Numbered from the stretch's first letter, positions 1 through 55,459 are shown. The stretch: 64,000 nt of DNA from Dictyostelium discoideum (GCA_000004695.1 CM000151.3:7072001-7136000), one strand, 5' to 3'. Translations and numbers: made by a program. Notes: a model not told the origin generated them from the letters alone.

Positions 1-163
1 AAAAATAAATAAAAATAAAAAAAAAAAAAATAATTAAAAATAAAAAATCTGGTAAAAAAAAAAAAACTATAAATATTTTTTTTTTTTTTTTTATATAAAG
101 CATTAAACAAATCGAAAAAAACTAAATTTTTAACTATAAAAAAAATTAAATTTAAAAAAAAAA

Positions 164-186
164 ATGTTAGCAAGTAAGTGTCTAAA

Positions 187-225
<39 letters not shown>

Positions 226-417
226 AATCTAACTTTATCCTTTTTTTAATTAGAATCATTAATCTTCTCTAAAAACTCATCAAAGGCAGACAAAATTTTT
301 TCAAATGATAAATTGACTGTTACTTCTTTTTCTTTAAATGCCACTTGCGAAAAAATTTCAGCTTCAACTACAACTTCTACCTCTATTTTTACAAGACCAA
401 ATTTCTTGAACTACTAA
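164..417 (+). CDS. micro-gene family copy A. Exon 1 at 164–173 (atgttagcaa|gtaagt), exon 2 at 254–417. Product is 57 aa: MLAKSLIFSKNSSKADKIFSNDKLTVTSFSLNATCEKISASTTTSTSIFTRPNFLNY.
   Basis: ATG plus 7 nt ends in phase 1, followed by a GTAAGT donor. An AT-rich intron ends in ...aattag, after which exon 2 stays open to TAA. The architecture and termini are shared with nine other copies. Confidence 0.55.
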
Positions 418-783
418 AAAAAATATATAAATAAACTAAATATATTGGCCGACTATAAATTTAAAATTCTAATTTTAATTGTTTGTTTGTTTTTTTTTTT
501 TAATAAATTTACCAATAATTTTATTAATTTAAATGATTTTATTAATTTAAATGATTTTCCTTTTAAAATTAAAAAAAAAACAATTTCATTTCTAATTAAT
601 TTTTTTTATTAATTTTTTTTTTTCAAACCCTCCATTACCTTTTACTAAAAAAAAAAAAAAAAAAAAATTATCTTATTTTGGTTTTAATATATGTACATGT
701 TTTTTTATTATTTATTTAAATATACAGTTTTTATATCAAGTATTTGTCGGCCTTGATATTTTATATTATTTTTTTATAAAATT

Positions 784-1031
784 TTAAAAATTTAAAAAAT
801 TTGGTCTTGTAAAAAAAGAAGTTGCGTTCTTAATTGAAACAATTTCATTTTTTGAAAAGTTATTTAAAGGTGTTTCACTATGGATACAGTTTAATGAAGA
901 TGAGTTTGTTTTGTTTGAAATTGAAATTAATGATTCTAAAATAATAATAAAAAAAAAATTAGAAATTATGTTTTGGAAAAAAGAAAAAAAATTGTTTTAA
1001 TATTCATTGCATTATACATACTTAATAACAT
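784..1031 (-). CDS. micro-gene family copy J. Exon 1 at 1031–1022 (atgttattaa|gtatgt), exon 2 at 935–784. Product: MLLKSLISISNKTNSSSLNCIHSETPLNNFSKNEIVSIKNATSFFTRPNFLNF.
   Basis: Reverse strand. Same exon and phase structure as the other copies, with the conserved exon-2 start aatcattaatttc and the C-terminus FFTRPNFLNF followed by a stop. Confidence 0.5.
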
Positions 1032-1555
1032 TTTATTATTTTTTTATATAGTTTTTTTATTTATTTCTAAATTTAGAATTTTTGTTTTATTTAAAATGAT
1101 TTTTTAATTAATAATGAATTATTTTTTTTAAACTATTTATATTTTTTTTTTTTTTTTAAGTAAAAGTATTCAAAAACCACTTTTATCTGTTAAATAATAA
1201 AATTTAAAAAATAATTGAACAGATGTTGTCGACATACACACACTCTCAATATAAAAATAGTGTTATCACAAACTTTAAAAGAAGTATGTGCGAATAGATT
1301 TTATTTAATATAGAATCATAAAACCAAAATGATATTTTTTATATATTGATTTTAAAAATAAAAAAAGCAATTTATTATTTTTAATAAATGAAGAAATAAA
1401 TTTAATTAATAAATAAATAATTTAAAAGGGTTGGTTTAAAAAATAAAATAATTATTTAATATGAACCAAAATTAAAAAATGAATTAATTTTGAATTTTTA
1501 TTGGAATAATTGAGTATACATATATTTTTAATTGAATATTAATAAAAGTGAAAAT

Positions 1556-1655
1556 NNNNNNNNNNNNNNNNNNNNNNNNNNNNNNNNNNNNNNNNNNNNN
1601 NNNNNNNNNNNNNNNNNNNNNNNNNNNNNNNNNNNNNNNNNNNNNNNNNNNNNNN
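1556..1655. other. assembly gap (100 N)
   Basis: Run of N characters; it lies inside the repetitive micro-gene cluster. Confidence 0.99.
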
Positions 1656-1789
1656 ATGTCATCATTTGTATTTTTAATTTATAGTGTCATTTTTAGATAT
1701 TCTTTTTTTTTTTTTTCAATTAAAACTGAAATTGTATGTTTATATATATCAGTGTTTTATTTGAAATAAAAAAATAATAATAATAAATG

Positions 1790-2257
1790 AAGTAAAAATA
1801 TTCAAACCACTTGTTGATGATATCCATTATTTAAGTAATCATTGTTGAAAACATATATTTGATATTGTTGTTGTCAAAAAAAAAATTAATATGATTTCAA
1901 CAAGATTAATAAAATAGTTTAAATTATATTATTATTCTTGTTGATATCATTATCCTTGTTTTTTTGTTTTTAAAAACAATTGTCTTTACTTGTATGTCAA
2001 CATAATATTTTTACAAAATTTAAACAATTAATAAAATTGTGTGTTTATTAAATAGTGGTGGTGGTAGGAAGTGGTTGGGGTGGGGTGGTGGGAAGTGGTT
2101 AAATTTTACTTAAAATAATTATTTCGATTTAAAAAATAAAATAGAATTTAAAAAAAAGTATAAATACTTTTTTTTAATTTTATTTTTTATATCAAACAAA
2201 CATTAAATTAAAAACAAAACAAAAACATTAATTAAAAACTATGAAACTATAAATAAA
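1790..2257 (+). promoter_or_regulatory. conserved promoter module of copy B: two TTGTTGATATC-type blocks (1808–1830, 1938–1950), a G-rich box (2055–2098), TATAAATA (2159–2166)
   Basis: The same elements occur in the same order upstream of copy E (5120–5583) and, mirrored, upstream of copy C (3190–3480). The G-rich box (GGTGGTGGTAGGAAGTGGTTGGGGTGGGGTGGTGGG) is highly unusual in DNA that is about 90% AT. Confidence 0.5.
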
Positions 2258-2497
2258 ATGTTATTCAGTATGTATTTTTAATAAAAAAAACAATGAAAAT
2301 ATCAATGAATATAATATTAATTTAATATTTTTTTTTTAAATTTAGAATCATTAATTTCATTATCAAATAAAAATACCACCTTAAATTCATCTTTAATTTC
2401 AAATCAAACAAACAATGATTGTAATGAATTTAAAAATGAAATTACAAACAAAAGTTCTACTGCATTCTTTACAAGACCAAACTTTGTAAACTATTAA
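2258..2497 (+). CDS. micro-gene family copy B. Exon 1 at 2258–2267 (atgttattca|gtatgt), exon 2 at 2346–2497. Product is 53 aa: MLFKSLISLSNKNTTLNSSLISNQTNNDCNEFKNEITNKSSTAFFTRPNFVNY.
   Basis: Canonical GTATGT donor, tttag acceptor, and an in-frame join. TATAAATA lies at about −99 and a G-rich box at about −200. Confidence 0.6.
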
Positions 2498-2584
2498 AAA
2501 AAAATATTATGATAAAAACAATTCCGATAAAAAACTTGTACAAACAATAAAATCTATTTATTTATTTATTTATTTATTTTAAAA

Positions 2585-2632
<48 letters not shown>

Positions 2633-2944
2633 CCTTGAGTGATTTTTAAAGTTGGTTTTAAATTAATTTTTTAAAACTATTGATTTTTTGATATTTTATC
2701 TTTATTAATATGTCTCCTTTGGATTTTATTATTTGCCCACTTTTTCATTTATAAAAGTAATTCGTTTTTTTATCAAATTTTACATAATTTTAAAATTTTT
2801 TTTTTTGTCAAACTTTTCCACAAATAAATAAAGAAAAAACAGAAAAATTATTTTTTAATTTTAAATAAATATATAAATATATTTTTTTTTTTAAATGTAC
2901 AATTTGTTTATCGGTATTAAAATTTTTTTTTTTTTTTTTTTTTT

Positions 2945-3189
2945 TTAATAGTTTATAAAGTTTGGTCTAGTAAAGAATGCAGTAGAACTTATGTTTGTAA
3001 TTTCATTTTTTAATTGATTACAATCATTGTTTGGTTGATAAGAAATTAAAGATGATTTTGAGGTGGTATTTTTATTTGATAATAAAATTAATGATTCTAA
3101 AAAAAAAAAAAAAAAATTCAAAATTAAAATCAACTTCATTATAATATATTTTTAATTATAATTTTTAAAATATACCTACTGAATAACAT
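2945..3189 (-). CDS. micro-gene family copy C. Exon 1 at 3189–3180 (atgttattca|gtaggt), exon 2 at 3096–2945. Product: MLFKSLILLSNKNTTSKSSLISYQPNNDCNQLKNEITNISSTAFFTRPNFINY.
   Basis: The ORF track (2945..3139, minus) covers exon 2. Exon 1 and its donor are found upstream on the minus strand. The promoter is a mirror image of the copy B promoter. Confidence 0.6.
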
Positions 3190-3480
3190 TTTTTATTTTT
3201 ATAGTTTTATATTTAGTTTTTTAAGATTTTATAATGTTAACTTTGTTCGATATAATAAATTAAAAAAAAAAAAAAGTATTTATACTGTTTTTTAAATCGA
3301 AATAATTAAGTAAAATTTAGATAAACACCCACAACCACCACCACTATAGCACATTTTTTTAAAAATTATGTAAAATGATTATGTTGATATACAAGTAAAC
3401 AGTAAAAAAAAAACAAGTATAATGATATCAACAAGAATAATAGTTTAATTTATTAACAACATTTTAAAAATATGTTTCCA
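3190..3480 (-). promoter_or_regulatory. conserved promoter module of copy C: TATAAATA at 3277–3286, a C-rich run on the plus strand (G-box in gene sense) at 3326–3345, ATGATATCAACAAG at 3422–3435
   Basis: It is the reverse complement of the copy B and copy E promoter architecture. Confidence 0.45.
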
Positions 3481-3705
3481 ACATCCATTTTTTTAAAAAA
3501 GGACTTAAAATTTTATTTAATTAATTAAAAAAATAATACAATAAAATTGTTTACAACAAAATTTAATTTTAATTTTTATGATTATTTAAAAAAGAAAAAA
3601 ATAAATGATAATTTGTAAAAAAAAAAATAAAAAATTAATTCTAATTATCTAGAATAATTTATTTTACAATAGTTTTTTTAATAAAAAAAGTTATTTGGTT
3701 GTTTT

Positions 3706-3745
<40 letters not shown>

Positions 3746-3948
3746 AAGCTAAATTGAATTATTTATTTAAAAACCTTTTTTGAACTAATTATAATAATAA
3801 AAATCAAAATAGCTAAACTATTTCACTCAAAAAAAAAAAAAAATGAAAATAATTTTTAAATTTTTTAAATAAATAAATAAATAGTTTTTTATTTGTACAA
3901 GTTTTTGTCGGCAATATAATTTTTTCAATAATTTTTTTAATAGTTTAC

Positions 3949-4085
3949 AAAGTTTGGTCTTGTAAAAAATGCAGTAGAACTTTTACTTGCAATTTCATTT
4001 TTGAATTCAATGCAATTATTATTTAATTGATTTGAAATTAATGATTTTGAGGTGGTGTTGTTATTTGATAATGAAATTAATGATT
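3949..4085 (-). CDS. micro-gene family copy D (partial). Exon 2 at 4085–3949 encodes ...SLISLSNNNTTSKSLISNQLNNNCIEFKNEIASKSSTAFFTRPNFVNY. Exon 1 is lost in the N gap.
   Basis: The exon-2 acceptor (ttag|aatcattaatttc) and the conserved C-terminus are present. Upstream sequence is the gap at 4130–4219. Confidence 0.45.
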
Positions 4086-4129
4086 CTAATAAATAAAAAA
4101 AAAAAAAAAAATAAGTATANNNNNNNNNN

Positions 4130-4219
4130 NNNNNNNNNNNNNNNNNNNNNNNNNNNNNNNNNNNNNNNNNNNNNNNNNNNNNNNNNNNNNNNNNNNNNNN
4201 NNNNNNNNNNNNNNNNNNN
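4130..4219. other. assembly gap (90 N)
   Basis: Run of N. The predicted exon 1 and promoter of micro-gene copy D would fall inside this gap. Confidence 0.99.
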
Positions 4220-5119
4220 ATAAATCATTTTATTTCATATTTATGTTTAAAATATGTACATGAAATCACAATAAACAAAACAACACCTATGTTTAATGAT
4301 TGTTTAAAAATTGTTGATTTAAGAAATGATTTGTATTGATTCTAATAAATTAAAATTTTAACCACAAAATAAAATCCTACCACAATTTATTCTTCCATTC
4401 CTTCTACTATACCCTAACCTATTTAATTATATATTCTAGAATTTGAATTTATTGTAAAATAGTGTTTATACTCCACCAACAAAAAGGATTTAAAAACTAT
4501 TTTAAAAATCATAAAGCTTTAAAACAAAATGTTTGAAATTATTATTTTAAAAGGTTTGGAAAAAAAAGAAAAGAAAAGAAAAAAGAAAATGATATTATTT
4601 ATTAAAAAGAAAAAAACAAAAAAACAAAAAAAGAAACAAACTAAATCAAAATAAACCAATTTAGAATATAATTAATTTCTTGTTTTTCTTTTTTTTTTCC
4701 AAACTTTTAAATTTAGAAAATAATTGATTTCTTGTTTTTCTTTTTTTTTTTAGAATCGCTGGTGTATTTATTTTTTTAATTATTTTATTTTTTGATTTTG
4801 TTTTAATTTATTTCTCTTTAATTTTACTTTTTTTTCGAGTTGCTGATAGCTATGCTATTTATTTTTATTTTATTTTACTTTTACCATTTCTCTTTTATTT
4901 TGTTCTTTTTTTTTTTTAATGAATTTTTTTTTTTTCATTGTTTTAAAAACTTTTAAAAATGAAAAAAAGTATAGGAAAAATGAGAATCATAAAAAACAGG
5001 ATGATGAATAAGTTTTGATCACTTATATTTTTTAAAATATAGTGCATTTTTACATGACATATTATTATATTTTTTAAATTTGAATTGAAAAATTATATAA
5101 ATGAAGAAAAAAAATGAAA

Positions 5120-5583
5120 ATTAATTAATGATGATATCAATTTTAAAACAATGATTGTTGAAAACATACAATATTTATGATTTTTATATGGTAGTTGAAG
5201 AAAATTATTGATTAAAAAAATTATTATCTATTAATAAAAAGGTTTTAAATTATATTATTATTCTTGTTGATATCATTTTGCTTGGCTTAATTTTATATTA
5301 ACATTTAACTTTACTTGTATGTCAACATAATATTTTTACAAATTTTAATTTATTTAATTTATTAAATAATTGTGTGTTTATTAAGTAGTGGTGGAGGGGG
5401 GTGGGTGGTTGTGAGTGTGTGATTAAATTAATTATAACTAAAAATTATTTCGATTTTAAAATTAAAAAAAAAAACAGTATAAATACTTTTTTTAATTTTA
5501 ATTTTTTATATCAAACAAAAATCATTAATTAAAAACTAAAGTTAAATAAATTAAAAACTATAAAAAAAAAATATATTTATAAA
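5120..5583 (+). promoter_or_regulatory. conserved promoter module of copy E: TTGTTGATATCAT at 5275–5287, G-rich box at 5387–5424, TATAAATA at 5479–5486
   Basis: It aligns with 1790–2257. The G-box variant is GTGGTGGAGGGGGGGTGGGTGGTTGTGAGTGTGTG. Confidence 0.5.
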
Positions 5584-5839
5584 ATGTTATTCAGTATGTA
5601 TTTTTTTTTTTATTTTTTTATTAGAATTATTTTTTAAAAATATCAATGAATTTAATATTAATTTAATATTTTTTTTTTTAAATTTAGAATCATTAATTTC
5701 ATTATCAAATAAAAATACCACCTTAAATTCATCTTTAATTTCAAATCAAACAAACAATGATTGTAATGAATTTAAAAATGAAATTACAAACAAAAGTTCT
5801 ACTGCATTCTTTACAAGACCAAACTTTGTAAACTATTAA
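5584..5839 (+). CDS. micro-gene family copy E. Exon 1 at 5584–5593, exon 2 at 5688–5839. The coding sequence is identical to copy B.
   Basis: Exon 2 matches B over all 152 nt. About 460 bp of upstream sequence is also highly similar to B (5120–5583 versus 1790–2257), which points to a recent duplication about 3.34 kb away. Confidence 0.6.
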
Positions 5840-6493
5840 AAAAAAAAATAATATGATATAAACAATGCCGATAAAAAACTTGTATATTTAATAAAAAAAA
5901 TTAATTATTTATTTATTTATTTATTTAAAAATAAAACCAAATTTTTTATTTTTTTATTTTTTTTTTTTTATTTTTTTTTTTATTTTTTTGAACATTTTCT
6001 ATCCTGACCCTGCAAATATAGCACCAAAAAAAAAAATTTAATTCAAAAAAAATAAATTTAAATAAAATTAAATGTTTTTTGAACTTCGTTTTTTTTTTTA
6101 TTTTATATAAATTTTTTTTTTTTTTGGGTACTTTTGTTCACTTTTTTCTTTTTATTTTTATACTTAAAATCTTTCAAAAAAAAAAGAAAAAACAAAAATT
6201 GATCAAATAATGAACTTAATATATTTCTTACCAAAAAATAAATAATAATAATAATAATAACGATAAAAATAATACTCAGTTCTTATTTTACATATGTAAC
6301 CTTTTTATTTTTTTAGATAATTTGTCATAATTATTATTTTTATTATTATTATTTAAAGTTTAAAAAAAAAAAAAGAAAAAAAAAAAAAATTTTAGTTTTT
6401 TTAATTAAGTTTTGTTTATTAATTTTAATTTATTTTACAAGTAAAGTTCGGCCATGTAAATTTATATATATATATAAAGTTTTTCGTTTTTTT

Positions 6494-6736
6494 TTAATAA
6501 TTTACAAAATTTGGTCTTGTGAAAAAGGCAGTTGGACTCTTCATTGTAATAGAATTATTTGTAGTACTAATTGAATTTATATTATTAGATTCAATTGAAC
6601 TTGATAATGATGATGAATTTTTGTTTGATAATGAAAGTAAAGATTCTATTTAAAAAAAAAAAAGTAAATTAATTAATACAATGACTTTAAAAATTTTTTT
6701 TTTTTTTTTTTTTTTTTTCAACTTACTGAATAACAT
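6494..6736 (-). CDS. micro-gene family copy F. Exon 1 at 6736–6727 (atgttattca|gtaagt), exon 2 at 6645–6494. Product: MLFKSLLSLSNKNSSSLSSSIESNNINSISTTNNSITMKSPTAFFTRPNFVNY.
   Basis: Reverse strand, same architecture. The promoter has TATAAATA at about −100, a G-run, and the GATGTTGTCGACATACA element. Confidence 0.55.
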
Positions 6737-6925
6737 TTTAAATTATAGTATATTAATATAGTTTTTATATTTGTTTTTTTATTTATTTAATTAATAAAAT
6801 TTTTTTTTAATGATTAAAATAATTTTTTTTTTTTTTATTTATACTTTTTTTTTTATTTTTAGTTTAAACATTTAATATAACCCCCAAAAAACCACTTAAT
6901 AACACTAATAACAAATTTGTAAAAT

Positions 6926-6946
6926 AGATGTTGTCGACATACATGT
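6926..6946. promoter_or_regulatory. conserved element GATGTTGTCGACATACA(T/C), followed by a CA run, about 190 bp upstream of minus-strand copy F. An identical element lies at 1218–1240, about 190 bp upstream of copy J.
   Basis: Two copies of an exact 17-mer containing a GTCGAC core, each flanked by (CA)n or ACACAC. Both sit at the same distance from the ATG of a minus-strand micro-gene. Confidence 0.4.
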
Positions 6947-7601
6947 GTTTTAAAAATTAAAAGGTTTTTTTGATAAACACACACACATTAAAAGAAGAGA
7001 TTTTATTATTTTAATTAAAAGATAATTTTAAAAAATGTAGATATGGTATCAACATCATTTTCTTTTTGACAAAAATAAAAATAATTATTTTAAATTTTAA
7101 TTTTTAATGATTATATAATTATTTACCCGCTCATTGATCACTATTTTTTTCCAAATAATTGTTATCATCATTTTTAAAATCAATTTTCTTCTTTTATAAG
7201 TTTTTTATTTTATTTTTATAATAATTTTAATTTTCTTAAGGAGTATTAATATGGATATAATAACAATATAATTGATTTTTAAAGTAAATCAAGTAAAATA
7301 AAAATAACAAAATTTCTTCATTTACTTTATTTATTTTAAAAATAAAAAGGTTTTTTATTTAATTTTAAAAAATTATAACATCATCCTTTTTTAAAATAAA
7401 AGAAGATAAAAATGATGAAATTATTTTATTATTTTTTACTTAATGATGTATTATCTTAGGGGACATCAAATTGAGAAAAAAAAAAAAAAATTATTTAAAT
7501 TAAAAATTTTATTCTTTTTTTTTTTTTTTTTTTTTTCTTTCCTTAAATTTATATAAAAACTTAAAAACTAGAACTTCTAAAAATAAATAAAAGAAATTAA
7601 A

Positions 7602-7843
7602 ATGCTATTTGGTATGTTAAAATTAATTTTATATAATTGGTTGATATTTATTTATTAATATTTTAAATTTTAGAATCAATTAAATTAAACATAAAAATAA
7701 ATAATTCTTTAAATGAATGTTCAAATTTATTAATTAGTGAAAATAATAAACATTCATTATATATTAATTCATTAAATACAATTACAACTAGAAATCAAAC
7801 TAGTAGCTTTTTTTTTTCTAGACCAAATTTCCAATGTTTTTAA
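7602..7843 (+). CDS. micro-gene family copy G (divergent). Exon 1 at 7602–7611 (atgctatttg|gtatgt), exon 2 at 7674–7843. Product is 60 aa: MLFESIKLNIKINNSLNECSNLLISENNKHSLYINSLNTITTRNQTSSFFFSRPNFQCF.
   Basis: Same exon and phase structure. The C-terminal motif is the variant FFFSRPNFQCF. Confidence 0.5.
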
Positions 7844-8309
7844 AAATAGATAACTAATTGTTAATTTACATTAAGAATAATTGTTCGAATAACTCAATAT
7901 TTAATTATTATTATGAATTAAATCATTTTTAATTTTAGAAAAAATAATAATTTATAAAAAAAATAGTAAAAATAAAAAATAAATTATTATTATTAAATTT
8001 CCAAAATCATACTTCATTTTTTTGATAATAACAATAATAATTATTTTGACAAAAAAAAAAAAAAAAAAATTGATAATTATTTCTTTTTGATAAACAAAAA
8101 TTAAAGTTGATATCAATAAATTTATTAGCCGGACAATTATTCAATATATTTTAAAAAATCAAATATCTAAAATATAAATCTTGATTTTAATAAATGTTGA
8201 TATCATACATATTATTTCTGCTTCTCATATAAATTTAAAAATAGCAACATATTCAATTTACAAATATATTTTATTTTTCAATCTATAGATTTATCAATTT
8301 TTTATTTTT

Positions 8310-8349
<40 letters not shown>

Positions 8350-8606
8350 ACCCATAGTAAAGAAGGGGTCAATTTTTAATTATCAAGTTATACGATTATT
8401 TCTATTTTAATTTTTATTTTATTTTTATTTTTATTTATTATTTTACTTTAATCAAAAAAAAAAAAAAAAAAAAAGTAAATATAAATAGTATTTTTTTTTT
8501 TTAAAAAAATAAATACTTAAAAATAAATCACAAATCAAAACATTAATTAATATAAATTATTAAAAAAAAAAAAAGAAAAATATTAAAAAAATAAATATAT
8601 TTTAAA

Positions 8607-8847
8607 ATGTTATTCAGTATGTATTTTAAATTAATTTTATTTCATTGTAAATTATAAATAATAAATATTAATTATTTTTATTTTTTTTTTTAAAATAGAA
8701 TCATTAATTTCATTATCAAACAATGTTTCAAAAGTTTCAACATTAATTTCAGTTGAAAACAATGAAAATTCTATAAATACTACAACAAATACTATAACAT
8801 TAAGAAGCACAGTCTTCTTTACAAGACCAAATTTTATTAATTATTAA
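8607..8847 (+). CDS. micro-gene family copy H. Exon 1 at 8607–8616, exon 2 at 8699–8847. Product: MLFKSLISLSNNVSKVSTLISVENNENSINTTTNTITLRSTVFFTRPNFINY.
   Basis: Exon 1 is atgttattca|gtatgt, the acceptor is aaaatag, and the conserved termini are present. Confidence 0.55.
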
Positions 8848-9016
8848 TTAAAAAAATAATTTATATATAAAAACAAAACATGGCCGAAATTTACATGTTT
8901 TAAAAAAAGTTAACGAAATAAAATCCTTTTGATTATAAAAAAAAAAATAAAAAAAAAAATTATATGTTTTCTTTGTATTTTTATTTTTTATTTTTTATTT
9001 TATTATTTTATTATTT

Positions 9017-12000
9017 TTAACTATCTTTTTTAAAAGTTAAAAATTTTTCAAAAGAAAATTTGTTTGTACCAAATATTGATAATAAAACTGGTAATAAGAC
9101 TAAACCATGAACAGCTGCTAATAAACAAATACTTATATACATTTTGAAATAGTATATGATAAAGATTTCTGATTTTGAAAAAGCTAAAACTACACAACCT
9201 AAAAGTTTTGTGATAAAGATACCACTAAATATGTTTGCACCCATTTCTGATATTGCAAATTTAACCTTTTCATCTCTTGAATAATGTTTTGGTGATCTGA
9301 TGAATGTACTTGCAATATGAACGCAAAATTCTATTGATATACCAACAGCCATAATTAAATTTACGACAGAGATTGCATTCAAAGATATATCCCATAATGT
9401 CATGACGGCCAAAAGGTCAACAACCGTCATACCAACACAAAGTACAACCAATATTGAAACCAATGGATTCATTAATATAGCTAGTGATACGAAAAATACA
9501 CTTCCCAATGCCAATAAAATACCTTTTAATGCCACTTGTTTTATGGTTAAATAAGCTTCAAAGTAACAATAGAAAATACTATAAGTGAAAACTTGAGCAT
9601 CTGAATGGTCAGCCAAATAATAACTTGTGGCAAGTGCATTGATGAAATCATTTTGAGTTCTTAGAGTTGTATGATAAGCATCGAAACGAGTTGCTGCAAT
9701 ACTACCATCACTATTGAATTTTACATCACCAGTATATGCTAAACCTGCCAATGGACATTGATCTGTATTTGTGAAATTTAAAAATGCAGGTAAATACTTT
9801 TTAAATAGTGATGGATCGGGTCTACCAGATTTTTCCAATGGGAAACATTGTTGATCACAACCAGGTTCATCACTATTACAATAGGTACCATTATCGAATG
9901 CTGTACAACAACCGACAGTATTACTCCATTGTAACATATCATCTAACCATGATGAAATTCCAGGTGAAATGAATGGTGCATTATCAAATGTATTTATAAC
10001 TGAATTATTATTACAACCACCTACTGTACAAAATTGATTTTGAATTGATGGTATGGAGAAATCATAATTTCCTTTTACAACTATATACATTGGTGGTCCA
10101 ACCTCTAAGAATTGATTCATATTTGTGAAATAAGCTTGAAGATAAGAGTTTCTTGGTAGTGCAACCTTTTGATCTAAACCAATTGGAATTTGATATGCAT
10201 AATTTATTGAAAACAATAACATTGCAATAAAGAATATTATAATTAATAATTTTGAAATTGGATGAACTAAAAATGGAGCATAATATTTTGTAAATAATTC
10301 CTTTAATAATGTTGTTTTCTTTTTTGATTTCTTTTTTAACATTCTCTTTTTTGATAATGGTGATGATTCTTCATTATTAATATTTAAACCATCAACAACA
10401 TTTAATGCATCAACATCATAATTAAAATTATGAGCATTATCATTTCTATCATCATCTTCACCATTAATTAAAAGTGGTTCATTTTCAATTTCTTCTTGAT
10501 TATTATTATTATTGTTATCATTGTTATTAAGATTATTATTATTATTATTATTATTACTATTTAATTGTTGATCAATATTATCAAATGGATCATCTTCTAA
10601 ATCTGAATTATCACCATTTAATGATAAGCATGGTAAACAATCAACTCTTCTTGATTGTAAACGTTTTGTATCTAAAACTAATAAACAAGCGAATGCACTA
10701 ATTTGTAATAGGAAGTCAAAGAAAACTGCAATTGAAGCATAGAATGAAAATGCTTTTACTGCTGGCATTTTAGTTAAGGAACCTAATAGGAAAGCAAATG
10801 ATTCACTTAATGATGCTAATGCAATTGATGGACCAACCTTTGCAAGTGTACGAGCAAATGATTCTTCTGGTGTTGGCATTTGATGATGATTTTGATTAAA
10901 ACCACTAATTGATGATGATGATGATGATGATGCAACATGTAAAGATTCAAAAGTATTTACTAAAATGAATATATTATCAACACCAATGGCTAACACTAAG
11001 AATGGTATAACTTCACTAATGATTAGAGTTGCTTTTATACGTAGAATTGAACAAATACCAACAGAGATTATAATTGAACATGCAACTATACAAATACCAG
11101 ATAGACCCAATGCAAATCTTGAACGAATGAAAAATGAATTGAATCTTCTTGGAAATGGGTAATAACTACCTAAACTAAGGGAGATATATAAAAACATAAC
11201 GAAATAACTAACGATAATCGTTGGTATATCTGCATTACCTTCTCTTGCCAATTCATCTTGTACTGATCTTTGAGCATTGAATGATATTTCGAATGGACAT
11301 GAAGGATCATTTGAAATCTCTTGAATTTTATTTAACCAAACTTGTTCCCACATCATTGATCTATCAATCATTGAATCTGGATTATTCAATAGGAAAGTGG
11401 TGACAAATGCTTTTGCCAACGTTGAATTATCATTCCAACCACCCAATACTATCTTTGGATTTACAGGTACACCAGTTGAATCCATACATTCTGGTGAAAG
11501 TAATTGTGATTTACATTGTTCAAACCAACCAATTACATTATCCTTTTGTTGATTTAATTTATTTTGATCACGTTGAAAAATACCTGTTATACTCTCAACC
11601 AAACAACCACGTTTAGTAGGTTCAAAACATAATTGATCCAATGTTATAATCCTATTTGAACCATCATTAAGCTTTACACTTGTATTCTTCATTAGTTGTG
11701 TCTCTATATCAATTAATGATTTAAATAAATCATAATTGAAAATCGTTGATAAATTCTTTTGTTTTGGTATTAAAATTAATTGTTCAACACGATAGAATGG
11801 ACCGAAATGATCATCGAAATATTGTTTCTCAATTGCTGATCTACTATCTGGTGATACCCATAATTTTACTGGATCAGTTTCAATCTCTAATGAAATAATA
11901 CCAATACCAATACCAATTGTAAATAGTAAACAACATATTAAAACTATTATTGGTCTTTTTGTAATATTAATTCCATACCAATAAAATACTTTTTGAAAAA

Positions 12001-13437
12001 TATTTGAATAATTGCTACCACTATTATTGTTATTATTTCTATTATTATTGGTATTTTGAATTTCATCATTATTAACTTGTTGATTAATTATACCACCACT
12101 AATACCAAGTATTCTTCTTGAATTTCTATTTGAAGCTGTTTTATCAACAATTATACAAGCTAAAATTACTATTGATAATAACAATAATGTTATCATTATA
12201 TAAATGGATACACCCATTGCAAATGAACAATTCCATTCTTTTCCATCATCTAATTTCCACATACAACTTGCTGTTTTACCATCTATCATTTGATGAGTAG
12301 TTACAAATGGTATCAATACTGTACAAATGAATAAAATACCCAATATTATCATCATTACTGTTTTAAACTTTTTACCCTTAAAATATCTAATCTTTGATGA
12401 ATATTTAAATATTAACCAAATGCTAAATCCAAATAATAATGATAATAAAAATAATAAAAATGACCAAACTATCCAAATTGTTAAATGTGGTACTCTTAAA
12501 AAAAAAAAAAAAAAAAAACCAAAATATTAATATATATATTTAAAATATATAATAAATAATAATAATAATATTATAAATTTACTTACTCTATTAATAAATG
12601 AGTTTGAATGATTGTATCATTTAATAAACCAATATCTTTATAGGAAGGGGGAGGTAAACAAGCATCACGACATTGATCACAAGAACAACCTTCAGAACAT
12701 GGTACGATTGCATCATTATAACCTTCATTATTAAAAACCCAATTTAATTCTTTGAATGTTGGATTCACTGCAGAGAAAACACCAGTGAAGAACAATTGTG
12801 CAGTTGGAAACATTACACCAAATGGTTGAGCACCATTGGCATGTACATCTCTACATGAATTATATAAACCATTGGCGAAATCTGGATGTAAAACGAAATC
12901 GATGCTAATGATTTGGTCAGTTTTATTATCAACTTTAGTTGGTACCATAAATGATTTCTGATAGGGTGAACATGACGATGCACACCATAGATTATAAAGA
13001 TTAACCATACAACTACTACATCTACCAAATATACCACCCGCTACCAACATATTGGTTTGTAAGATTAAAGTTTGATTATAATTACAACATGATTCAATTG
13101 AATATTCTGGATGTGTTAATTGACATGTATTTGGTGCGATTTCCGTATTATTCTGAAATTTTAATATTAAAAAAAAAAAAATAATAAAAACATAAAAAAT
13201 AAAAAAAAAAAAAAAATAAAAAAAAAAAATAATTAATTTTTCATAGAAAATAAATATTTTTATTTTTATTAATAATAAAAAACTTACTAATGGTGGAAAA
13301 TCTTTTGCTTCAACAAATGAAGATGAAACGCCATACATTGAACAACCTAATGTTGTATTATAAGGGTAAGGTGATTGACATTGTATTATATTTATAATCG
13401 ATAAAAAAAAGATTAAAAAAACTATTATTTTATTCAT
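9017..13437 (-). CDS. Niemann-Pick C1-like protein (NPC1/Patched family with sterol-sensing domain), about 1,397 aa. Exons at about 13437–13288, 13152–12587 and 12494–9017.
   Basis: The N-terminal Cys-rich NPC1 NTD motif CCNYNQTLILQTNMLVAGGIFGRCSSCMVNLYNLWCASSCSPYQKSF is present. The SSD segment GLSGICIVACSIIISVGICSILRIKATLIISEVIPFLVLAIGVDNIFIL is present. There are 13 predicted TM helices and a signal peptide. Donors are GTAAGT, the acceptors are tttcag and tttaag, and the phases are consistent (0, 2). Confidence 0.8.
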
Positions 13438-27559: not shown

Positions 27560-28435
27560 ATCTGATTCCATGGCATAAAATGTGGTGATATTTCTGGTAA
27601 GGTATGTAAAAAGAATCCAAATCTTAAATATGATTCTACACTTATTAAGTTGTCCAAGGAAACAGTATTCAACTTGGAATGTGGAAACCAGGAACATTTG
27701 GTGTTTGGGGTGAAATGTATTCTGTTATTCTCAAAAAAGAAGACTGGGCAGCACATCATCACCTTAGAAATGTTTACTTTTTCTTTGATAATGATGGTGA
27801 TAAATATTGAAATGATGCTAATAGATTAGATTTTTTAGATATGACTTAAATCTAAACTTCTAAATCAAACTTTTAAAAATAAATTTAATTTTACTTTTAT
27901 ATTCTTGAGTCTATCAATTCGAGAGGATATTTTTTTTTTATTTTTTAAAAGTTTAAAAATTTTGGTCCTGAAAAAGTGATTTTCTTTAAAAAATACAATT
28001 CCATTATAATTTGAATAATTAAATCAATTTTTAATTGACTAACCACCACCCGAATATTAAAATCATTTATTAAGATCCAATTCTTAAATTTGATACTCAA
28101 ATTGTAAAGTAACAGTATTCAACTAGGGATGTGGAAACCAGGAATATTTGGTGTTTGGGGTGAGATGTTCTCATAAAAGAAGACTGGGCATCTCGACACA
28201 ATCGTGTAAATTTTTACTTTTTCTTTGATAATGATGGTGATAATTATTTCAATTTAGATGCTAACAGATTGGAGTTTAACTTTCAATCAAACATCATCAT
28301 CAAACATATTTAAAAAAAAATTATGGAATAAATTTAATTGTTTAAATTAATTTTTATCAATTTATATATATTTATATTTTTTATTTGATTTTTATATTTA
28401 ATTTTATATTATTAAGTCGACCAATTCGAGAGGAT

Positions 28436-28472
<37 letters not shown>

Positions 28473-28520
28473 TTAAAAAATTTGGTCTTGTAAAAGTGCA
28501 ACTCTTTAAACTTATACAAT
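27560..28520. repeat. tandem segmental duplication, two units of about 470 bp (27560–28000 and 28040–28520)
   Basis: Both units carry ...cagtattcaact(t/a)gg(a/g)atgtggaaaccaggaa(c/t)atttggtgtttggggtga(a/g)atgt...gaagactgggca...tttttctttgataatgatggtgataa... Both also carry ...caattcgagaggat(a/g)tttttt...aaaagtttaaaaa(t)tttggtc(c/t)tg. Unit 1 has an open frame (…MWKPGTFGVWGEMYSVILKKEDWAAHHHLRNVYFFFDNDGDKY). Unit 2 has an internal deletion and stops. Confidence 0.7.
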
Positions 28521-28695
28521 TAATTGTTTTGTTGGGAATTTCATTATTGTTTGAATTTATTTTTGATCTTTCCATAGTAATTTTAAGTGAAAAAATAAAC
28601 GATTCTATTATTTATTATTTTAAATATAAATATTAGTTTTTTTATTTTTTTTATTTAATTCTATTCTCTAATATATAAAACTTACTAAATATCAT
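28465..28695 (-). CDS. micro-gene family copy I (dispersed copy). Exon 1 at 28695–28686 (atgatattta|gtaagt), exon 2 at 28604–28465. Product: MIFKSFIFSLKITMERSKINSNNNEIPNKTINCISLKSCTFTRPNFLNF.
   Basis: Same architecture about 20 kb from the main cluster. It is embedded in a ~470-bp tandem duplication whose first unit at 27940–28000 carries only a truncated relic. Confidence 0.45.
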
Positions 28696-50698: not shown

Positions 50699-50771
50699 GG
50701 GGATGTAGCTCAGATGGTAGAGCGCTCGCTTAGCATGCGAGAGGTAAAGGGATCGATACCCTTCTTCTCCA
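50699..50771 (+). tRNA. tRNA-Ala (anticodon AGC), 73 nt
   Basis: Cloverleaf read by hand: acceptor GGGGATG/CTTCTCC with the G3:U70 Ala identity pair. D-arm GCTC-AGATGGTA-GAGC (A box TAGCTCAGATGG). Anticodon stem CTCGC/GCGAG with loop TTAGCAT. T-arm AAGGG-ATCGATA-CCCTT (B box GGATCGATACC). One T:T mismatch at positions 6:67 and the non-canonical T-loop mean it could be a variant or a pseudogene. Confidence 0.7.
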
Positions 50772-54404: not shown

Positions 54405-54708
54405 ATGACTCTCTTTTGTAGGTTTTACTAAATTAAAAAAAAGTTTTTTTTTTTAGAATAATAATTAACAATTTGTATTTTTCTTTATAATTTTAAAATT
54501 AGCATCATTATCATCATTAAGCACTGGTTCTTTGAAATCAAGTGTTTCTTCAATTGAAACTGGTAGTTCAAGTGGTTCATTTGGTTCAAATGAAACATCG
54601 GGATGGGGTCACCATCATTGGAATAGTTGTCATCCATGTCCACCACCACGTCCAATTTGTCGTCCATGTCCACCACCATGTCGTCCAGTACCAAGATGTC
54701 ATCATTAA
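54405..54708 (+). CDS. hssA/2C/7E-family-like small protein, 72 aa. Exon 1 at 54405–54417 (atgactctctttt|gtaggt), exon 2 at 54503–54708. Product: [72 protein letters not shown].
   Basis: A 13-nt first exon ends in phase 1, followed by an intron of about 85 nt. The N-terminus is MTLFSSLSS and the body is S/G-rich with a Cys/Pro/His-rich C-terminus. Family assignment is from memory of hssA/2C/7E proteins. Confidence 0.55.
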
Positions 54709-55173: not shown

Positions 55174-55459
55174 TTAATATTTATAATGGCATCTTGGTTC
55201 TGGACGGCATGGTGGACATGGACGGCAAATTGGACGTGGTGGTGGACATGGATGACAACTATTCCAATGGTGGTGACCCCATCCAGATGTTTCATTTGAA
55301 CCAAATGAACCACTTGAACTACCAGTTTCAATTGATGAAACACTTGATTTCAAAGAACCAGTGCTTAATGATGATAATGATGCTAATTTTTATAAATTAT
55401 TTATTAATAAATTAAAATTTTTTTTTTTTTTAGGAAAAAAACTTACAAAATAGGGTCAT
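55174..55459 (-). CDS. hssA/2C/7E-family-like small protein, inverted paralog, 73 aa. Exon 1 at 55459–55447 (atgaccctatttt|gtaagt), exon 2 at 55382–55174.
   Basis: On the minus strand the product is [73 protein letters not shown]. It is about 95% identical to the plus-strand copy and the two genes converge. Confidence 0.5.

Follow-up and report, generated by a model that had tools for sequence, protein, structure and literature searches.

A family of two-exon micro-genes with a conserved FTRPNF tail in Dictyostelium, and its possible kinship with the hssA/2C/7E/sigN class

Ten FTRPNF micro-genes on chromosome 2

The stretch of DNA analysed here, hereafter the window, comprises 64,000 nucleotides (nt) of Dictyostelium discoideum AX4 chromosome 2 (chr2:7,072,001-7,136,000; chromosome 2 = 8.48 Mb), and its subject is a family of tiny paralogous genes that we refer to as FTRPNF genes after the C-terminal signature of their products. 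An initial annotation had proposed ten two-exon units with a common architecture, and all ten were confirmed at the positions it gave, copy D with exon 2 only. Nine units are clustered in the first 9 kb of the window, where the G+C content is 14-15%, and copy I is solitary. The window contains 10 occurrences of the nucleotide motif ACWAGACCAAAYTT where 0.49 would be expected, 0 of 100 shuffles reached that number, and an nhmmer profile of exon 2 run over the window recovered the nine cluster copies and no extra hidden copies. The ten copies, with product lengths in amino acids (aa), are as follows.

164-417, + strand: copy A, two exons, 57 aa, ending ...IFTRPNFLNY; product identical to DDB_G0276637
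784-1031, - strand: copy J, 53 aa, ending ...FFTRPNFLNF; product identical to DDB_G0276635; convergent with A
2258-2497, + strand: copy B, 53 aa, ending ...FFTRPNFVNY; DDB_G0276613; product identical to that of E
2945-3189, - strand: copy C, 53 aa, intact; convergent with B
3937-4085, - strand: copy D, full exon 2 including the stop; the gap 4130-4219 takes away exon 1 together with the beginning of the intron
5584-5839, + strand: copy E, 53 aa; product 100% identical to DDB_G0276707
6494-6736, - strand: copy F, 53 aa; product identical to DDB_G0276651; convergent with E
7602-7843, + strand: copy G, 59 aa, divergent tail FFSRPNFQCF; product identical to DDB_G0276653
8607-8847, + strand: copy H, 52 aa; product identical to DDB_G0276655; last copy before an NPC1-like gene
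28465-28695, - strand: copy I, 49 aa, solitary and divergent, ending ...TFTRPNFLNF; product identical to DDB_G0276669

Eight of the ten units are existing AX4 gene models with exactly these spliced products, all named 'hypothetical protein', so that the genes are not new discoveries as had been implied, and the proposed splice model (10-nt exon 1 plus intron) is identical to the existing one. Published G-quadruplex (G4) sequences with chromosome 2 coordinates matched window positions 2056-2075 (p12) and 5389-5409 (p14), which fixes the chromosomal position of the window, identifies copy B as DDB_G0276613 and confirms copy E as DDB_G0276707. Protein searches returned no sequence identical to the product of copy C. 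Exon 2 of copy D, first placed at 3949-4085, extends to 3937 when its stop is included. The suggestion that the two assembly gaps (1556-1655 and 4130-4219) hide many copies was not supported, since the gap-free syntenic array of D. citrinum contains 10 copies versus 9 here.

Gene structure and predicted products

In each unit ATG plus 7 nt constitutes exon 1 (10 nt), followed by a GTATGT, GTAAGT or GTAGGT donor. The introns of the window are AT-rich, end in a TTAG or ATAG acceptor and measure 62-94 nt, a wider range than the 66-80 nt given before; exon 2 (~152 nt) opens with AATC, and the spliced coding sequence is in frame across a phase-1 intron. Across the family the intron ranges over 62-113 nt and the first exon has 10 nt, rarely 7 nt. 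The products encoded in the window start with M-L-F-K-S-L-I-S-L-S-N-K or near variants, end with F(F)TRPNFxN[YF] and a stop, and are 49-59 aa long, so that the lower bound of the earlier estimate (49-60 aa) stands and the upper bound is corrected. They have 0, 1 or 2 Cys per copy, not usually a single one as first described, and the family proteins lack a hydrophobic signal peptide, as had been noted.

Protein features were derived from 52 distinct full-length family proteins. Their modal length is 53 aa, their net charge is mostly +2 to +5, and the Arg-Pro of the tail is invariant (52/52), within an extended consensus [IV]-[ST]-x-[KR]-S-[ST]-[ST]-x-[FY]-F-T-R-P-N-F-[VIL]-N-[YF]-COOH. The core, 25-35 aa in length, is composed of 24% Ser, 18% Asn and 11% Thr (53% together), with ~0% Gly and 2% Cys. 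AlphaFold2 run with the family alignment gave no secondary structure (predicted local distance difference test score 63, predicted template modelling score 0.15). The family proteins are thus predicted to be basic, intrinsically disordered and Ser/Asn/Thr-rich. Pfam scans of 10 and of 27 family members returned nothing meaningful.

Reading frame and selection

Coding statistics were obtained from 28 intact models of three species (D. discoideum, D. citrinum and D. firmibasis). The length of exon 2 was 2 mod 3 in 28/28 copies despite 10 different lengths (140-173 nt), in agreement with the earlier statement that the frame is always preserved between copies; intron lengths were distributed 10/10/8 among the three mod 3 classes. 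The ratio of non-synonymous to synonymous substitution rates (dN/dS) was estimated between orthologues as pooled Nei-Gojobori (NG86) values with bootstrap limits, a rough estimator for so AT-rich a genome, and was lowest in the C-terminal 10 codons (dN/dS = 0.02-0.08, dS = 0.23-0.50, dN = ~0.01-0.03), followed by the N-terminal 12 codons (0.10-0.40) and the core (0.34-0.56, bootstrap upper limits 0.51-0.86). The dS values of the tail indicate that synonymous sites of this invariant segment evolve at a normal rate, and synonymous variants are indeed frequent within the motif (AAT/AAC 16:12, also TTT/TTC and ACA/ACT).

Purifying selection therefore acts on the protein, being very strong in the C-terminal ~10-18 residues, strong at the N-terminus and relaxed in the spacer between them. 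The cores had been called hypervariable and ascribed to diversifying or relaxed selection: hypervariability holds between old paralogues, whose cores are saturated (dS >1 or undefined), but not between orthologues, where the cores are conserved, and the selection is relaxed purifying rather than diversifying, the upper limits of the core being below 1. Positive selection among paralogues was considered and rejected, because with the cores saturated the sole close pair with a ratio above 1 was B-C, whose dN/dS of 1.8 rests on just eight changes (7 vs 1); the close pairs B-D and C-D both gave 0.29. Taken together, the preserved frame, the constrained tail and the synteny described below bear out the view that these are real coding paralogues and not decayed repeats, and the FTRPNF genes almost certainly form a real family constrained at the protein level.

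Distribution and evolution of the arrays

A first profile search yielded 33 proteins; HMMER, run exhaustively over 1.84 billion representative proteins, yielded 24 representatives. All named matches belong to Dictyostelium, namely ~25 genes of AX4 (mostly on chromosome 2, one on chromosome 3) and genes of D. citrinum, D. firmibasis, D. cf. discoideum and D. purpureum; the sole unnamed match (P0032, an unlabelled Logan contig) includes the tail of AX4 DDB_G0276379. D. purpureum has one member, called 'expressed protein' by its source, with an identical exon 1 (ATGTTATTCA, followed by GTAAGT), an exon 2 that opens with AATCATTAG and the tail YFTRPSFVGY. The FTRPNF genes are thus a lineage-restricted multigene family of group-4 Dictyostelium (D. 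discoideum, D. citrinum, D. firmibasis and D. purpureum). A full-text literature search for 'FTRPNF' found no paper, and about 20 family gene identifiers that were looked up turned up solely in a G-quadruplex survey, as 'hypothetical protein'. With neither a paper nor a Pfam match, the claim that a family with the C-terminal FTRPNFxNY signature is undescribed was upheld; the genes are already annotated, and the family as such appears to be undescribed.

Syntenic arrays are present in D. firmibasis (contig L001, 11 copies) and D. citrinum (contig L002, 10 copies), and both end, like the window array, beside an NPC1-like gene. What is duplicated is not the coding unit alone, as first supposed, but a block of 600-900 bp made up of ~500 bp of promoter, the gene and ~130 bp of 3' flank. 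The genes are mostly laid out as convergent pairs (A/J, B/C and E/F), and D. citrinum has duplicated its E/F pair. Copies B and E, reported as identical in coding sequence, indeed encode identical proteins with 100% identical exon 2, in surroundings (~900 bp) that are just 79% identical. A corresponding D. citrinum pair (L002 6874-7120 and 10001-10245) is near-identical mutually and unlike the B/E pair of D. discoideum, which suggests, on sequence grounds, gene conversion or independent recent duplication inside each species. From the E/F duplication of D. citrinum and the homogenisation of B and E it follows that the family evolves by tandem duplication of 600-900-bp units with some gene conversion, the duplications being lineage-specific.

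Several copies in these genomes differ from their automatic annotation. In D. citrinum only 1/10 copies is annotated (L002 1205-13377). In D. firmibasis (L001 4872-15305) RB653_002832 (65 aa) begins at an intronic ATG and RB653_002817 (101 aa) splices beyond the stop, and three copies were uncalled, at 4872-5139, 12486-12725 and ~8890-9118 (- strand), the last being intact with an in-phase 7-nt exon 1 (ATGTATA followed by GTAAGT). In D. cf. discoideum (L004 10001-16600) five same-strand tandem copies are of the DDB_G0276591/0276741 type (...TTFFTRPNFVNY), and in this sub-cluster a GGACCGACCAAAA box lies ~65-75 nt past the stop in 3/5 copies. The family signature is therefore useful for re-annotation, most copies having been missed or mis-spliced by automatic annotation in newer Dictyostelium genomes.

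Promoter and 3' elements

Judging from the motifs around it, each gene appears to be an independent transcription unit with its own TATA box ~100 nt upstream and a 3' box before AATAAA. The element TATAAATA was found at -82 to -127 in 21/28 copies. In addition, members of the B/C/E/F clade keep a G/T-rich box on the coding strand, at -148 to -203, in all three species; the boxes of the window are as follows.

2055-2092, + strand: G/T-rich (G-box-like) box of copy B, ~170-200 nt upstream, holding the published G4-former p12
5389-5413, + strand: G-rich box of copy E, ~190 nt upstream, holding the published G4-former p14
3323-3344, - strand: G/T-rich box of copy C, ~155 nt upstream, on the coding strand of C
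6879-6895, - strand: G/T-rich box of copy F, ~159 nt upstream, with a second GT run at 6975-6987

Both p12 and p14 form G-quadruplexes in vitro (PMC6511855), and the G4 survey placed them in the promoters of these genes by means of dictyBase RNA-seq and expressed sequence tag alignments (PMC6511855). The B/C/E/F boxes are similar to the GBF-binding G-boxes known from sigN promoters, and by this analogy GBF-type G-boxes probably place the B/C/E/F clade under developmental control, like the sigN genes. Additional conserved promoter blocks were CTTGTTGATATCATTAT and TACTTGTATGTCAACATAAT before copies B, E and C (1940-1965, 5255-5280 and 3415-3440 on the - strand, respectively) and GATGTTGTCGACATACA before J and F (1222-1240 and 6927-6945), all of which may be transcription-factor sites.

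Downstream, a [CT]CGA box, mostly GGCCGA, lies 20-55 nt past the stop in 30/30 copies examined, and in most cases (C)TTGTA and AATAAA come after it; the dinucleotide CG is scarce in this DNA. The spacing of this CG box is ~75 nt past the stop in L003 and L004 (L003 box at 1808-1835), and D. purpureum has a similar box, TCGATCGAGCTTGTAAATAAA. The 3' elements of the window are listed below.

725-762, - strand: 3' element of copy J, ATATCAAG-GCCGACAAATA-CTTGATAT, a stable hairpin with the CG box in its loop, just before AATAAA
8872-8909, + strand: 3' element of copy H, AAAACATG-GCCGAAATTTA-CATGTTTT hairpin
2512-2549, + strand: 3' element of copy B, CCGA box, then CTTGTAC and AATAAA; stable hairpin absent
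437-474: equivalent 3' box of copy A
2889-2926: equivalent 3' box of copy C
3886-3923: equivalent 3' box of copy D
5856-5893: equivalent 3' box of copy E
6426-6463: equivalent 3' box of copy F
7873-7910: equivalent 3' box of copy G
28404-28441: equivalent 3' box of copy I

Hairpins of the J and H types have a stem of 7-8 bp with compensatory stem changes and z values of -2.8 to -5.9, and no stable stem formed when the B, C, D, E, A and G types were folded. A universal 3' hairpin was accordingly rejected, despite promising covariation counts, because folding gives a stable stem only in J-/H-type copies. The CG box would thus be the conserved part and the hairpin specific to a subfamily. The CG box may serve in 3'-end processing or in regulation.

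Comparison with the hssA/2C/7E/sigN class

Micro-genes of the hssA/sigN type number well over 100 in Dictyostelium; some are among the top late developmental transcripts, and deletions of their clusters are silent. The hssA/2C/7E/sigN family (Pfam PF05710, 'Coiled') has been described with ~96 genes for proteins of <120 aa, whose exon 1 contributes a 13-nt open reading frame in 89/96 and a 10-nt one in 3/96 genes, followed by one intron of ~66-128 nt and a second exon (Vicente et al. 2008, PMC2257962; Kin et al. 2018, PMC6198379). These sigN-like genes are clustered on chromosome 2, apparently from duplicated opposite-strand pairs, their promoters have GBF-like G/C boxes, they are induced at ~10 h in prestalk or cup cells, and SigN proteins were observed in small vesicles (PMC2257962, PMC6198379).

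The FTRPNF genes share with this class a tiny first exon, a single phase-1 intron, products of <120 aa without a classical signal peptide, G-rich GBF-like boxes in some promoters of each, a restriction to dictyostelids and an organization of tens of copies in chromosome 2 tandem clusters of opposite-strand pairs. In size and clustering (49-59 aa; convergent A/J, B/C and E/F; 600-900-bp units) they likewise correspond to it. The N-termini are also similar, M(T)LFSS[IL]SS[IL]S in hssA/sigN and MLFKSLISLS in FTRPNF proteins. Exon 1 of the FTRPNF genes (10 nt; 7 nt in one D. firmibasis copy) is one or two codons shorter than 13 nt with the same phase-1 position. On the other hand, FTRPNF products are 53 aa versus ~64-100 aa, and their FFTRPNFxNY C-terminus has no counterpart in the hssA/sigN family. 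The published list of 96 sigN genes contains no chromosome 2 entry with a 10//152-nt, 53-aa structure, and the lone chromosome 3 FTRPNF member (54 aa) is unmatched to the list, the nearest entry being sigN183 (56 aa).

The window itself contains two hssA-like genes, which allow a comparison at the level of codons.

54405-54708, + strand: hssA-like gene, 13-nt exon 1
55174-55459, - strand: hssA-like gene, 13-nt exon 1

Both products combine a Gly/Ser-rich middle with a Cys/Pro/His-rich tail. Against the N-terminal part of PF05710 they scored 20.7 bits (E = 7.5e-4; cutoff 21.4), and a protein search with a window hssA-like product found a single near-identical paralogue, DDB_G0285567, on another chromosome. 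The cup-cell marker beiE (DDB_G0276687) may correspond to one of the two. An Rfam scan of the window gave a tRNA gene at 50699-50771 (+ strand) as its sole match.

The hssA-like 5' end reads ATG ACT CTC TTT T, intron (gt...ag), CA TCA TTA TCA TCA TTA, encoding MTLFSSLSSL(S), and that of the FTRPNF genes reads ATG TTA TTC A, intron (gt...ag), AA TCA TTA ATT TCA TTA, encoding MLFKSLISL. Intron phase and position after the Leu-Phe codons are the same in both, and exon 2 opens with xA TCA TTA ... TCA TTA in both, whereas the hssA-like genes differ by an extra Thr codon in the 13-nt exon 1, a Gly/Ser body and the lack of the CG-box 3' element. The architecture of the FTRPNF genes is not unique, since it matches that of the known hssA/2C/7E/sigN class, with two such genes in the same window.

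Interpretation and alternatives

Because the N-terminal module and the intron position are common to both and exon 1 is one codon apart, we consider on balance, from sequence comparison, that the FTRPNF family shares ancestry with the hssA/2C/7E/sigN class, either as a branch that has diverged from it or as its sister. The selection pattern suggests in addition that the conserved ends would be the working parts of the FTRPNF proteins, with the middle as a spacer that would need only disorder and a preserved frame. By analogy with SigN proteins, which were observed in small vesicles, the N-terminal module could be a targeting or handling signal common with the hssA/sigN proteins, and the invariant aromatic C-terminal tail could work as a short linear motif, whether as the site where a conserved partner docks or as a peptide that a precursor releases. 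As a whole, this explanation, which combines the reality of the family, its ancestry and its function, seems to us fairly likely to be correct.

A number of observations weigh against it. The body of the FTRPNF proteins is Asn/Ser/Thr-rich versus Gly/Ser/Cys-rich in hssA/sigN proteins. With hhalign, LFKSLISLS was aligned with LFSSLSSLS over 9 low-complexity columns at 78% identity, with P = 0.07 and a probability of 0.8%. The PF05710 profile (gathering threshold 21.4 bits) matched 1/27 members, at E = 7.5, and 0/10 in an earlier scan, and the exhaustive profile search of 1.84 billion proteins returned no hssA-type protein. The promoters of A, J, G, H and I lack the G-boxes. An N-terminal amphipathic helix was tried and rejected, because its hydrophobic moment was non-significant, 12% of shuffles equalling it. 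The gene identifiers searched were absent from the portions of supplementary data available for three transcriptome and proteome papers (PMC6198379, PMC12821622 and PMC9117722), and the dN/dS values have the roughness already mentioned. Lastly, casting the N-terminus as a targeting module and the tail as a linear motif or a peptide is something we infer rather than observe; it is tentative and rather less likely than not. Sequence membership in the hssA/sigN family is, on these scores, not statistically demonstrable.

The most serious alternative is that the FTRPNF family is real and coding yet unrelated to hssA/2C/7E/sigN, the tiny exon 1 and the Ser/Leu-rich start being convergent or generic. 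Non-significant profile matches, an entirely different composition and C-terminus, and the shortness and low complexity of the common segment are all as this alternative predicts. Against it stand an intron of the same phase, placed identically with respect to the Leu-Phe codons, and an exon 1 exactly one codon apart; moreover, a 10-nt exon 1 exists within the sigN list and a 7-nt variant within the FTRPNF family, and clustering in opposite-strand pairs and G-box promoters are similar. We therefore regard independent origins as possible, though rather unlikely.

Two further alternatives concern what the genes make, and both are disfavoured. The transcripts rather than the peptides could be functional, as argued for hssA, where suppression of a culmination defect persisted with a frame-shifted copy (a precedent quoted in PMC6198379). 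The conservation of a CG box or hairpin in the 3' untranslated region of all 30 copies examined would agree with such a role (as would the hssA precedent, PMC6198379), but the constraint lies at the amino-acid level, with a normal dS (0.23-0.50) and a dN of ~0.01-0.03 in the tail, and indels are all multiples of three, making a function confined to RNA quite improbable.

Slightly less probable still is that the proteins are toxin-like precursors or precursors of ribosomally synthesized and post-translationally modified peptides (RiPPs), in which a conserved leader and follower flank a diversifying bioactive core, following the logic of MSDIN (amatoxin) or conotoxin precursors. Like fungal MSDIN-type precursors, with which we draw a functional analogy only, the FTRPNF proteins are small and form a large, tandemly arrayed paralogous family with invariant ends and cores that are very different between paralogues. 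Their core is, however, long, of low complexity (53% Ser/Asn/Thr, 0-2 Cys) and under purifying selection between orthologues (dN/dS = 0.34-0.56, without an excess of replacements), and the strongest constraint is in the tail, not in the flanks of a short core. There are also no flanking Pro cleavage sites, just one Pro being invariant, and no linked processing enzyme: the window neighbours are NPC1-like, MIOS-like and ZFYVE26-like genes, and the D. firmibasis neighbour is a metallo-beta-lactamase-fold gene, not a peptidase or tailoring enzyme.

The weakest alternative takes the units for non-coding repeats, or for what is left of mobile or complex repeats, with accidental open reading frames. 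It would suit the 600-900-bp repeated blocks in an AT-rich, gap-containing region and the inverted repeats in some 3' flanks, but the data on selection and synteny all but exclude it: the frame is kept in 28/28 copies across 10 exon-2 lengths, dN/dS is far below 1 with a normal dS at the tail, copies have a TATA box and splice signals, and orthologues occupy syntenic positions in three species, with conservation extending to D. purpureum. A transposon or complex repeat was likewise rejected as a candidate in view of these fixed syntenic positions, the absence of Pfam domains and purifying selection on a small open reading frame.

Implications

Returning to the reading of the FTRPNF genes as relatives of the hssA/2C/7E/sigN class, a more specific proposal, which we think improbable, is that the tail (~10-14 residues past a conserved Lys/Arg, e.g. 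K followed by SSTAFFTRPNFVNY) would act as a peptide ligand, either set free or displayed, during development. If so, the precursors encoded by dozens of genes would be redundant, all supplying one signal or adhesion motif, delivered through the same unconventional N-terminal module as in hssA/sigN proteins. A new peptide signal would thereby be identified at the molecular level, some Dictyostelium peptide factors being still without a known gene, and the absent phenotype of sigN-type cluster knockouts would be accounted for.

Apart from that proposal, the FTRPNF family adds ~25-30 genes of the hssA/sigN layout with a different and far sharper conserved element, an invariant C-terminal decapeptide kept since the D. 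discoideum/D. purpureum split. So short and invariant a tail is experimentally tractable and could open a way into the role of this class of tiny proteins.

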